The notes beneath the pieces are model-generated. The model was not told the origin of the DNA. It made no database searches and saw only the letters and a list, made by a program, of their open reading frames with translations. Both the position numbers and the translations under genes were made by a program. DNA of 32,000 nucleotides from an uncultured bacterium (lineage in GTDB: Bacteria > Margulisbacteria > WOR-1 > CAVSGV01), in contig OY969425.1 of assembly GCA_963699255.1 (NCBI GenBank), positions 1,738,856 through 1,770,855 of the forward strand, written 5' to 3'. How positions within the stretch are numbered: position 1 is the stretch's first letter; each line of letters starts with the position of its first letter. Of the stretch, positions 29,515 through 31,227 are shown in pieces.

Positions 29515-29525
29515 CAAGGAAAAGT

Positions 29526-29552
29526 GAGGATATCACAAATTGTGATATCCTC
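29526..29552. promoter_or_regulatory. Perfect palindrome GAGGATATCACAA-a-TTGTGATATCCTC, 12 nt after the ORF6N stop
   Basis: 13-bp arms. Shares the 13-mer core TCACAAATTGTGA with the coding palindrome at 29128-29140. No U-run follows, so it is not a classical terminator. Confidence 0.6.
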
Positions 29553-29571
29553 TGAAAATCCCGATTTGACC

Positions 29572-29609
29572 ATAAAAAAAGGCTCCCTCCTTATGCAGAA
29601 GGGAGCCTT
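29572..29609 (-). terminator. Rho-independent terminator of the cysteine-rich gene pair
   Basis: AAGGCTCCCT (29579-88) pairs with AGGGAGCCTT (29600-09). On the minus strand the hairpin is followed by TTTTTTT (complement of 29574-29580). Confidence 0.75.
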
Positions 29610-29627
29610 GAACGAACTAAATCCGAA

Positions 29628-29897
29628 CTACTTCTTGCAGCAGTCCTTTACCGCACAAGTTGCGGCTTTAGAACCCGTAGGGCACTGTTTACTGCAATTC
29701 TTTGCGCATGCATTTTTGCATGACTTGGCCTTGCAGCAGCAGTCCTTCGAGCCCTTGCACGGGGCAGGGCAGCAGCACTCGTGGGACGCGATACAGCATT
29801 CGCTGTCGTACTTCGAAGCCGCCATAGCCGCGAGCGGAACGCTCATCGTACCCAGGAACATGAACAGAGCCAATACAGTAACTATCTTCTTAAACAT
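29628..29897 (-). CDS. Exported cysteine/lysine-rich small protein (89 aa; metallothionein-like composition)
   Basis: GGAGG SD 8 nt upstream. Sec-type signal MFKKIVTVLALFMFLGTMSVPLAAMA/AS. The mature ~60 aa contain 16 Cys in CC, CCC and C-x3-C runs with many Lys. A terminator follows. Confidence 0.75.
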   Translation of the reverse strand: MFKKIVTVLALFMFLGTMSVPLAAMAASKYDSECCIASHECCCPAPCKGSKDCCCKAKSCKNACAKNCSKQCPTGSKAATCAVKDCCKK

Positions 29898-29959
29898 GAT
29901 AATACCTCCATTTAATGGATAAAATTGAGACGGGACGGATCAAACAGGGAATTATGAGG

Positions 29960-30316
29960 TCAGACGAAATCCTTGCGGGAGACGAATTGCCTTGTGAACT
30001 TGCACTCGTTCAGCTTTGACATCAACCGGGGATCTTTAAAACATACCTCGCGGTCCTGGTGGACCGTTACCTTAACGGCCGAAATGGCCGGGATGCTTGT
30101 CGAGTCGGAAATAGAGACAGGGTCTGTTTGACCGGGATTTGCCGATGCGATAGCACTTATATTACCCGCGGACTTAAGGCAGCAGCATTCGCAGGCGGGA
30201 TCCTGTGAATGGCATCCGGAATTGTTTGAACAGAATGCGGGGCTGCAGCAAACAAGGCCATTCATGGAAACGGCCAGAACGAGAATGAGTAAACAGATCG
30301 ATTTGTTCTTCACCAT
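29960..30316 (-). CDS. Exported cysteine-rich protein (118 aa from the ATG at 30316)
   Basis: MVKNKSICLLILVLAVSMNG signal-like N-terminus, then VCCSPAFCSNNSGCHSQDPACECCC, sharing the CC...ECCC pattern with the downstream gene. TGTGATATAAT lies 7 nt upstream of this ATG. The listed start at 30343 adds a non-signal-like MFKCDIIYV. Confidence 0.6.
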   Translation of the reverse strand: MVKNKSICLLILVLAVSMNGLVCCSPAFCSNNSGCHSQDPACECCCLKSAGNISAIASANPGQTDPVSISDSTSIPAISAVKVTVHQDREVCFKDPRLMSKLNECKFTRQFVSRKDFV

Positions 30317-30323
30317 AACGTAT

Positions 30324-30334
30324 ATTATATCACA
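30324..30334 (-). promoter_or_regulatory. TGTGATATAAT extended -10-like element, 7 nt upstream of the 30316 ATG
   Basis: Minus strand reads agTGTGATATAATatacgttATG, the identical 11-mer to the one upstream of tldD. No SD. Confidence 0.4.
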
Positions 30335-30348
30335 CTTGAACACTGATT

Positions 30349-31047
30349 CTACTTCTTCGCTATCTTCTCAAGAAGCGAGATGATCTTGTCCATCTTCCTG
30401 TTCATTGACCACACCCTGAACGGCGTAGTGATGTTCATGATGAGGAAAACGACAAGAATGCCAAGTATCGCCAGGAGGGTGTTCTTGCTGAAGAAAATGA
30501 GGCTCTCAAGCATCCCTCTCTTTGGCGGCATCCCGTATTTGCCCGTCATAGTATCCATGAACACGGGATAATGAGGCGGAAAGTACGTTGCGTACGCTAT
30601 AGCGCCTGCCATGAGGTACAGCCCCGATAACGCCATATGGCCGAAGAATTCATCCAGCTCGTTCGCGGTCAGCAGCATGTAACTGACAAATTGCCCTATA
30701 AGAACGGCCAGAATGAACGTCAATATATCCAGCGGCAGAAGGTTGTGCCCAAGGAAATATGTATATGAGTAAAAGATGATAAGCGTGGCGATCGCGGTCA
30801 TATATGCCTGGGCGACCTTGGCTTCCATGAAGTTCTTTGTACATGACTTGACGAACGGATATTCGATGACGGCGAAGAATAATACCGGCCATATGCCTAT
30901 CTTTAAATGCTCCCACACGCTTTCATTGACCGGGCTTATCAGGGCAAGAAGCCAGTAGCTAGTGTTGTGGTATGCGGAATGGAGAAGCGTTCCAGCGATG
31001 ATTATTACAAGTGCCCCCGCGATCTCCCATAGAAGCGTTTTTCTCAT
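30349..31047 (-). CDS. Polytopic membrane protein, DUF6512-like N-terminal domain with a C-terminal extension
   Basis: SPVNESVWEHLKIGIWPVLFF matches the remembered DUF6512 core (VNES.WEHLK). About six hydrophobic helices. TATAAT lies 7 nt upstream of the ATG with no SD. Confidence 0.75.
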   Translation of the reverse strand: MRKTLLWEIAGALVIIIAGTLLHSAYHNTSYWLLALISPVNESVWEHLKIGIWPVLFFAVIEYPFVKSCTKNFMEAKVAQAYMTAIATLIIFYSYTYFLGHNLLPLDILTFILAVLIGQFVSYMLLTANELDEFFGHMALSGLYLMAGAIAYATYFPPHYPVFMDTMTGKYGMPPKRGMLESLIFFSKNTLLAILGILVVFLIMNITTPFRVWSMNRKMDKIISLLEKIAKK

Positions 31048-31071: not shown

Positions 31072-31227
31072 GGCAGATATAAAGGCAAAAGATGGCAGGG
31101 GAGGGCAGAGGAAGGCAAGGAATAGGGCTTAAGGCATAAGGTTCAGGGCTTGCTTGTTGATTTGCCTTTGACCGCATGCCATAAGCCTTATAATCTTCTT
31201 TGCCATTATGTTCTGCCCTCATTTGCC
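31072..31227. repeat. GGCA word array (10-nt phased) facing a TGCC word array
   Basis: GGCA at 31072, 31084, 31094, 31104, 31114, 31133 (four consecutive at exact 10-nt steps), plus GGGCT at 31125 and 31146. TGCC at 31163, 31177, 31201, 31214, 31224. Lies in the divergent region between the membrane-protein gene and the RRM gene. Confidence 0.75.

Follow-up and report, generated by a model that had tools for sequence, protein, structure and literature searches.

A rare two-gene operon for cysteine-rich, putatively Sec-exported proteins in one lineage of Margulisbacteria

We analyzed a 32,000-nucleotide (nt) stretch of DNA, hereafter the window, from an uncultured bacterium (GTDB lineage Bacteria; Margulisbacteria; WOR-1; CAVSGV01; assembly GCA_963699255.1, contig OY969425.1, positions 1,738,856 to 1,770,855), and focused on a pair of genes that encode two small cysteine-rich proteins. 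Three minus-strand open reading frames (ORFs) fill positions 29628-31047: a gene for a DUF6512 membrane protein, a gene for a 118-amino-acid (aa) precursor, which we call the long partner, and a gene for an 89-aa precursor, the small partner. The last two form a self-contained two-gene operon. The pair is rare, its two genes always occur together, and it is restricted to one family-level lineage, a narrow distribution that limits its generality. No envelope thiol-oxidizing system was found in the genome that carries the window. To judge from sequence searches, both protein families are previously undescribed and have no detectable relatives. We tentatively favor a role in binding thiophilic ions in the periplasm, as a sink or carrier of metallothionein type, and we weigh this reading against alternatives below.

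A rare gene pair with its own operon signals

To assess how widespread the two proteins are, we performed two types of search. A word-indexed search of 5.8 billion proteins returned two relatives of the small peptide and five of the long protein. A HMMER scan of 1.84 billion representatives with a seven-sequence profile of the long protein found six clusters, and the small-peptide profile matched nine of the 5.8 billion proteins; together, the two families come to roughly 15 clusters of sequences out of billions of proteins. In a set of 146 genomes of the phylum, the pair was present in family f1 alone, in genomes G000 (that of the window), G001 (two copies) and G002. We read the pair at the window, L004/L005, L002 (G001:C5), L011 (G001:C2), L009 (G002:C7), L015, L016 and L017; a further locus, L019, holds the small gene in a context like that of G002. 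A small, signal-bearing, CC-rich gene was located 50-68 nt downstream of every long gene found, on the same strand. The preliminary description of this locus had been drawn from the window's sequence alone; relatives of both genes have now been found, and the two always co-occur (about 9 loci). The contigs with the distant homologues belong to the same class as the window. The phosphoenolpyruvate (PEP)-utilizing enzyme of L015 is 82% identical to that of G000, and the MetX of L016 is 78-79% identical to the MetX proteins of G021 and G002.

The 89-aa ORF with 16 cysteines had been reported before, and its translation is identical to the one then quoted. A rival reading is that the cysteine-rich frame is an artefact and that the overlapping plus-strand ORF (29524-29922), named in the preliminary description as a possible refutation, is the real gene; that ORF is longer (132 aa), is open, and has a dN/dS (ratio of nonsynonymous to synonymous substitution rates) against L004 as low as that of the minus frame (0.33 antisense, 0.36 sense). 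Neither this ratio nor the differences between the small gene and L004 by codon position (7/3/15) can decide the strand, because the two frames share their third codon positions. We therefore replaced dN/dS with a joint test of six-frame openness, conservation and ribosome-binding sites over eight homologous loci. The sense frame was the sole frame of the six that is open in all eight, and in distant pairs its BLOSUM62 score against the window was about twice that of any antisense frame (184 versus at most 91 for the best other frame in L015, and 182 versus at most 78 in L020). The frame equivalent to the plus-strand ORF is interrupted by stops in L002 and L016, with protein-level conservation about half that of the sense frame. 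In 8/8 loci, a GGAG(G) sits 6-9 nt before the ATG of the sense gene, which also encodes a conserved signal peptide and is followed by a correctly oriented terminator, whereas the plus-strand ORF has no ribosome-binding site and its start falls in the terminator palindrome of the ORF6N gene. It stays open because the complements of Cys, Lys and Ala codons never give stops. The plus-strand ORF is a compositional by-product, and we consider the chance that it is the real gene to be negligible.

The long gene shows a third-position bias against L004 (12/10/41 differences; dN/dS 0.20). We placed its start at the ATG at 30316 (118 aa) and not at the GTG at 30343 (127 aa), because all long homologues are 114-123 aa in length and begin at the equivalent ATG. 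The signal-bearing gene that had been described upstream of the small one is thus real, and the GTG start that had been listed for it is replaced.

Transcription of the pair is predicted from its promoter, ribosome-binding site and terminator signals. The putative extended -10 promoter, TGTGATATAAT, is placed in the last codons of, and just downstream of, the DUF6512 gene, and either TGTGATATAAT or TGTGGTATAAT sits 7-9 nt before the long-gene ATG in 6/8 loci, independent of which gene lies upstream. An extended -10 this close to the ATG implies a leaderless mRNA. Across the eight loci we found no conserved operator upstream of the promoter, and the extended -10 was the sole shared element. At the other end, a G+C hairpin with a T-run follows the small gene in 8/8 loci, in agreement with the strong terminator that had been noted after the pair in the window. 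The flanking genes vary from locus to locus while promoter, ribosome-binding site and terminator are kept; the functional unit is therefore the pair and not a trio with DUF6512. Alignment of the eight spacers between the two genes further revealed a conserved motif, (TGA)CCTCA...GATCCGTCCCGT, which may be an RNA processing or regulatory site. A similar TCCGTCCCTAGT occurs after the small-gene stop codon in L011 and L002.

Anatomy of the two proteins and their cellular setting

Signal peptides were judged by eye, based on a basic Lys-rich n-region, a hydrophobic h-region of 12-20 aa and an AxA-type cleavage site. Sec-type features were seen in 13/13 small homologues and in 10/10 full-length long homologues (P0008 is N-terminally truncated), which agrees with the earlier view that both proteins are exceptionally cysteine-rich and look Sec-exported. 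The small precursor of the window has the signal MFKKIVTVLALFMFLGTMSVPLAAMA, predicted to be cleaved before AS, and a mature part of approximately 61-63 aa. Across the 13 small homologues, a Lys-rich n-region and a hydrophobic core precede putative cleavage sites of the form AMA/AS, AFA/VN, ANA/VK, VFA/DA and AQA/KD, and none has a cysteine near the site. The mature parts are 21-71 aa long and begin 5-8 residues before an invariant first CC.

In the window, the mature small peptide holds 16 cysteines in the order CC, CCC, C, CCC, four single C, C and CC, along with 12 lysines, one aromatic residue and two aliphatic residues. Cysteine makes up about 25% of this peptide, compared to a genome mean of 1.1% (1,276 long ORFs); the 89-aa ORF ranks second in cysteine richness among 11,085 ORFs of at least 40 aa and is the sole gene-like one of the top set. 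Across the family, mature peptides are 22-29% cysteine, mostly in vicinal CC or CCC groups, with many CK and KC juxtapositions, 2 to 20 Lys plus Arg, 1-6 Leu, Ile, Val or Met, and 0-1 aromatics (a single Tyr, in the window peptide alone). With their low mass, high cysteine content, near lack of aromatics and CC, CxxxC and CK motifs, these peptides fit the compositional definition of a metallothionein, and the metallothionein-like composition earlier claimed for the 89-aa product extends to the whole family. The number of cysteines is plastic: 16, 15, 15, 15, 15, 16, 10 (five members), 6 and 6. The minimal form, from G002, is ...SCCKLNNAACCSETAACCK, which consists of three CC pairs at six-residue spacing, while the window form has an extra CCCPAPCKGSKDCCC insert and a CKxxCxKxCxKxC run. 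Net charge also varies, from about +7 in the window mature peptide to between 0 and +6 in the 10-Cys and 6-Cys members.

We found no credible further copies of the tri-CC pattern in the window genome. Two adjacent short ORFs at G000:C1:861288-861686 (-) have CCCCC and CC...C.C..CC runs and lack a signal peptide; most likely, a different gene is being read there in the wrong frame.

In the long partner, a signal peptide is followed by a Cys-rich N-terminal segment (CC-x4-C-x5-C-x6-C-x-CCC), then by a linker of Ser, Ala, Pro and Thr that varies and is poorly conserved, and finally by a C-terminal tail. The CC-rich segment is exemplified by SCCSAEKASCCDKGDCC in P0011 and HSCCGHGNSPCCGSGSDCC in P0012, and long partners contain 6-11 cysteines. 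Within the tail, P, L, K, N, F, S and KDF are invariant; the window protein ends in ...FVSRKDFV-COOH. This KDFV ending is found nowhere else in the window genome, and a role in general protein sorting was rejected. The end of the signal peptide differs between members: the window protein has G-L-V-C, with V at -1, whereas the sequences of G002, P0008 (A-F-S-C) and P0012 (L-N-S-C) fit a loose lipobox ([LVI][ASTVI][GAS]C). The preliminary description had proposed that both proteins share a CC...ECCC core; this is a resemblance of pattern alone, as profile-profile comparison with hhalign aligned just the first 11 signal-peptide residues (probability 12%), and homology between the partners was rejected.

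The window genome is a single contig of 1.77 Mb and is 95% complete. Using Pfam models, we found no DsbA, DsbB or VKOR and no haem-copper or bd oxidase (COX1, cytochrome bd) in this genome. It does encode CcdA with an adjoining signal-bearing, TlpA-like CPGC thioredoxin, and one HMA-type P-type ATPase. The presence of CcdA and thioredoxin, with Dsb and VKOR not found, indicates that the envelope has a thiol-reducing route and no recognized oxidizing route.

Neighboring genes and other features of the locus

The coordinates of the features and the genes that neighbor the pair at its various loci are collected in Table 1.

Table 1. Features of the cysteine-rich gene pair in the window and genes that flank the pair at homologous loci
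Feature	Position	Strand	Basis or remark
Small partner, 89-aa precursor	29628..29897	-	ORF and translation; homologues P0001, P0002, P0013-P0019
Long partner, 118-aa precursor	29960..30316	-	ORF; homologue lengths and starts
DUF6512 polytopic membrane protein, 232 aa; neighbor of the pair	30349..31047	-	Pfam PF20122
Antisense ORF, 132 aa, not a gene	29524..29922	+	six-frame comparison
Putative extended -10 promoter, TGTGATATAAT	30324..30334	-	ends 7 nt before the long-gene ATG
Shine-Dalgarno GGAGG	29905..29909	-	7 nt upstream of the small-gene ATG
Spacer between long and small genes, 62 nt	29898..29959	-	alignment of 8 spacers
Conserved spacer motif, (TGA)CCTCA...GATCCGTCCCGT	29925-29945	-	equivalent spacers in L004, L002, L011, L015
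Intrinsic terminator, 13-bp stem with 7 G-C pairs and T-run	29579..29609	-	19 nt after the small-gene stop codon
GGCA array, words phased at 10 nt	31084-31117		zero expected in shuffles
DUF6512	upstream in window; downstream in L011		
lexA/dinB	downstream in L004, L002		
kdpF/kdpA	downstream in L009, L019		
TolC-family outer-membrane efflux protein	downstream in L015		PF02321, E 4.9e-33
metX/metW	upstream in L016, L017		
Hemerythrin, DUF4015, AhpC/redoxin-CcdA	upstream in L002, L011		

The 232-aa neighbor had been described as DUF6512-like, and Pfam confirms this well above the gathering score (84.8 bits versus a cut-off of 26; E 9.4e-24; profile positions 11-181 of 181), with the same outcome when the genome was searched. 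An association of DUF6512 with the pair had been suggested as well, and this link turned out to be weak. DUF6512 adjoins the pair in only 2 of about 9 loci (the window and G001:C2), in opposite gene orders, and in G002 the two are on separate contigs, with DUF6512 on C3 between lexA and ORF6N, as in the window, and the pair on C7 beside kdp. The pair also comes with a separate promoter and terminator. Of the 65 genomes of the class, the four with DUF6512 (G000, G001, G002 and G005) all belong to family f1; DUF6512 and the pair thus share a narrow lineage, but the genomes compared are close kin. The simplest reading of their proximity is shared ancestral synteny around lexA, as opposed to functional coupling, and the DUF6512 protein is probably not part of the pair's unit. 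We found no papers on DUF6512, and AlphaFold2 modeling of the protein from four sequences gave a predicted local distance difference test (pLDDT) score of 50. The G002 locus without the cysteine-rich pair (L012, G002:C3:16449-19961) contains, in this order, lexA, a 248-aa orphan, DUF6512 and a divergent ORF6N gene, which matches the neighborhood in the window; the orphan differs from the 403-aa A+T-rich gene that occupies this slot in the window, and gene turnover seems to be especially frequent at this position next to lexA.

A phased GGCA array had been described as preceding the cysteine-rich genes. The array is real; it is located upstream of the DUF6512 gene, however, and does not belong to the pair. 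Neither G001 nor G002 has it ahead of the DUF6512 orthologue, and it is therefore specific to the window genome. With the array missing in these relatives and the pair having its own promoter, we rejected it as a regulator of the pair.

Several observations concern the other loci. The two copies of the pair in G001, a metagenome-assembled genome, have the same upstream flank (hemerythrin, DUF4015) and different downstream genes, with DUF6512 after one copy (L011) and an 87-aa ORF, membrane proteins and lexA/dinB after the other (L002); this double copy is either a segmental duplication or the result of two strains binned together. Where kdp genes follow the pair, kdpF is intact and kdpA seems split into several ORFs (L009 2227-3357 in G002, and L019 6392-8629, on a related metagenome contig with Flye-style contig names), probably because of long-read frameshift errors rather than because these are pseudogenes. 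The G000 homologue of the PEP-utilizing enzyme on the L015 contig (pyruvate phosphate dikinase (PPDK) or PEP-synthase type, G000:C1:1043613-1046003) has one in-frame TAA inside the L015 match, which may reflect an error in sequencing, decay into a pseudogene, or recoding. G000 yielded no metX homologue at E <= 1e-30, although 95/146 genomes of the phylum have one.

Possible functions and comparison with known systems

The small and long proteins may together sequester or carry thiophilic ions in the periplasm in the manner of a metallothionein, with their cysteines held as reduced thiolates. We prefer this reading while regarding it as somewhat less than an even bet. It is based on the Cys/Lys/Ser/Ala composition and the CK and KC pairs, along with the precedents of Csp1/Csp2 and MerA described below. 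As the mature peptides have no hydrophobic core, they must be organized by metals or by disulfides. We favor the thiol or thiolate state because Dsb and VKOR were not found, because the gene content is anaerobic, and because the number of cysteines is variable and often odd (4/13 small homologues and 4/10 full-length long homologues, the latter with 7, 9 or 11); such a plastic number does not fit a fixed, all-disulfide scaffold.

From these sequence features, we infer that both proteins would be exported and would function in the periplasm, in a host that is an anaerobic diderm. There, the small peptide would be kept in the thiol state and could bind Cu(I), Zn/Cd, Hg(II) or As(III), with its lysines balancing the charge of the metal-thiolate clusters. 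The HMA-type P-type ATPase would expel soft metals into this compartment. The long product would carry its shorter CC-rich segment on a flexible linker, and its invariant tail could dock to an envelope component or to a partner, making it the tethered or exchange partner of the soluble small peptide. The position of the pair directly upstream of a TolC-family outer-membrane efflux protein in L015 is consistent with handling of metals.

A number of observations weigh against this reading. Beside the pair, we saw neither a metal-responsive regulator (MerR, ArsR or CsoR type) nor a conserved operator, and across the loci examined no metal transporter was consistently linked to it. The recurrent neighbors are instead oxidative-stress genes (hemerythrin and AhpC/redoxin-CcdA in G001; desulfoferrodoxin, rubredoxin and Msr in L019). 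No metallothionein family of Pfam matched any of the 13 small and 7 long homologues at E values up to 10, and neither protein matched the Csp, MerP or CopZ families. A fold built as a ladder of disulfides has the same CC-x6-CC-x6-CC spacing, as a Granulin match in G002 shows. That no Dsb proteins were found depends on Pfam models, and an unrecognized oxidase may exist. Finally, AlphaFold2 modeling of the 118-aa protein from a seven-sequence alignment reached a pLDDT of 41 and provided no usable model.

The oxidative-stress neighborhood keeps alive a different role, in which the pair is a periplasmic thiol buffer or sacrificial antioxidant. Its thiols, at high local concentration, would protect the envelope of an anaerobe sensitive to oxygen by quenching oxidants or electrophiles, and would be re-reduced via a CcdA/TlpA-like pathway. 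Both copies in G001 are approximately 3-5 kb from the AhpC/redoxin-CcdA-hemerythrin cluster, the pair in L019 is 2-4 kb from desulfoferrodoxin, rubredoxin and MsrAB, and the window genome has the CcdA/thioredoxin reducing pathway with no oxidases found. Vicinal disulfides are also strained and redox-active. These neighbors recur but are not co-transcribed with the pair, each belonging to a transcription unit of its own, and gene order shared inside a single family does not count as independent evidence. In the window genome, CcdA is about 1.5 Mb distant. A stoichiometric protein would be costly compared to small thiols, and the proposal leaves the Lys-rich, metallothionein-like spacing and the conserved C-terminal tail unexplained. 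We consider a thiol buffer to be unlikely, though worth keeping in view.

The need for metals or disulfides in a core-less peptide could also be met by disulfide-laddered mini-proteins of a granulin- or defensin-like kind, serving as a structural or cross-linking component of the envelope or as an antimicrobial, with the long partner as anchor or immunity factor. The strongly cationic window mature peptide suits such a role, but its net charge is not conserved in the family. The G002 49-aa peptide scores just above the gathering threshold of Pfam Granulin (PF00396; 22 versus 20.9 bits) over about half the module (profile positions 6-28 of 42), whereas no Granulin match was obtained for the other 12 small peptides or for any long partner. 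The full 12-Cys module (C-x5-6-C-x5-CC-x8-CC-x6-CC-x5-CC-x4-C-x5-6-C) is not found across the family, and we read the G002 match as convergence of CC spacing and not as membership. Odd cysteine numbers and a range of 6 to 16, no DsbA, DsbB or VKOR found, and an anaerobic lifestyle all argue against a ladder of disulfides, which would need an unrecognized oxidase or oxidation outside the cell. No outer-membrane exporter is linked to the pair, and the signal end of the window long partner, with V at -1, does not fit a lipobox. This possibility, too, we hold to be improbable. Still less can be said for the idea, raised in the preliminary description, that the proteins are precursors of cross-linked peptides, i.e., ribosomally synthesized and post-translationally modified peptides (RiPPs) of the thioether, sactionine or ranthipeptide type with the N-terminus as leader. 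The sequences are short and Cys-rich, as this would require, but no radical-SAM (S-adenosylmethionine), lanthionine-synthetase, cyclodehydratase, peptidase or ABC-exporter gene is located beside the pair at any of the approximately 9 loci, no NCBIfam RiPP family was matched, and the N-termini look by inspection like canonical Sec signals with AxA sites. We regard a RiPP origin as very improbable.

If the preferred reading of a periplasmic metal sink is correct, the pair would reveal a way in which anaerobes without Dsb, from a phylum yet to be cultured, deal with thiophilic metals or oxidants outside the cytoplasm. A Sec-exported, core-less, poly-Cys peptide would require an envelope that keeps thiols reduced. 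The family would also include natural modules for metal binding that are very short, as small as a mature form of 22 residues with three CC pairs. A more ambitious proposal is that this is the first natural Sec-exported metallothionein-type family in bacteria, a two-component periplasmic thiolate system for soft metals or metalloids, in which a soluble poly-CC peptide is joined by a KDF(V/A)-tailed partner that is tethered or docks through its tail, in an anaerobe whose envelope is without disulfide-forming machinery; we put this forward as a speculative possibility that may well prove wrong. In either case, two protein families without known relatives are added.

The earlier remark that no system of this composition is known to have been described agrees with our searches. 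Pfam and NCBIfam contained no family for either protein, with the G002 Granulin match as the sole exception, and searches of PDB sequences with both profiles and the mature peptide returned nothing significant. Literature searches on exported or periplasmic metallothionein, and on Margulisbacteria together with cysteine-rich proteins, found nothing relevant. To our knowledge, all characterized bacterial metallothioneins are cytoplasmic. Those known lack a signal peptide, and the route by which PmtA reaches the cell surface is unknown (PMC11237414). Metallothioneins are small, 20-30% Cys and rich in Lys, Ser and Ala, with few aromatic or aliphatic residues (in part general knowledge; PMC5171941, PMC11237414). 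The pair resembles metallothioneins (MT1/2, SmtA/BmtA/PmtA and MymT) in size, cysteine content, CC/CxC/CxxxC and CK/KC motifs and plastic cysteine number; it is unrelated to them in sequence and differs in its predicted Sec signals, its CCC and CCCC runs and its constant tailed partner. Csp1 and Csp2 of methanotrophs are, as far as we know, the sole well-studied exported Cys-rich metal stores. They are Tat-exported (twin-arginine translocation), Cys-lined Cu(I) stores that hold up to 52 Cu(I) per tetramer (PMC5171941). The likeness is that of exported, Cys-rich proteins with many thiolates storing Cu(I) outside the cytoplasm, a role that for the pair is predicted. Csp proteins, however, are four-helix-bundle tetramers of about 120 aa with an RR signal, whereas the small peptides have KK n-regions, are core-less, are too short when mature (21-71 aa) and contain Pro and Gly.

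Granulin/epithelin modules share repeated CC pairs at a spacing of 5-8 residues; they are eukaryotic with all 12 cysteines in disulfides, in contrast to the variable, often odd numbers in the pair's family and a host without recognized Dsb oxidases. Adjacent cysteines like those of the pair's peptides are also present in the MerA C-terminus, MerT/MerF and ArsD, and in ArsD three CC pairs serve as As(III) ligands. The vicinal pair of the MerA C-terminal CC is an Hg(II) ligand (PMC3466566). Such sites are single functional pairs within larger proteins, either folded or membrane-bound, whose genes belong to mer or ars operons, while no mer or ars genes or regulators flank the pair described here. 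A parallel in gene layout comes from chlamydiae, where OmcA and OmcB are encoded by adjacent genes as a small and a larger exported Cys-rich protein, with a CC right after the signal, as in the pair. This likeness is one of description and not of compared sequence, and Pfam returned no match of the pair to chlamydial Cys-rich families; OmcA is a lipoprotein and OmcB is approximately 60 kDa, in an oxidized disulfide network, whereas the signal end of the window long partner does not fit a lipobox and no Dsb was found. Small Cys-rich proteins that hold metals or redox equivalents are thus already known; what is new in this pair is the predicted Sec export, the density of CCC and CCCC runs, the obligate pairing with a tailed partner and a host that appears to be Dsb-less.

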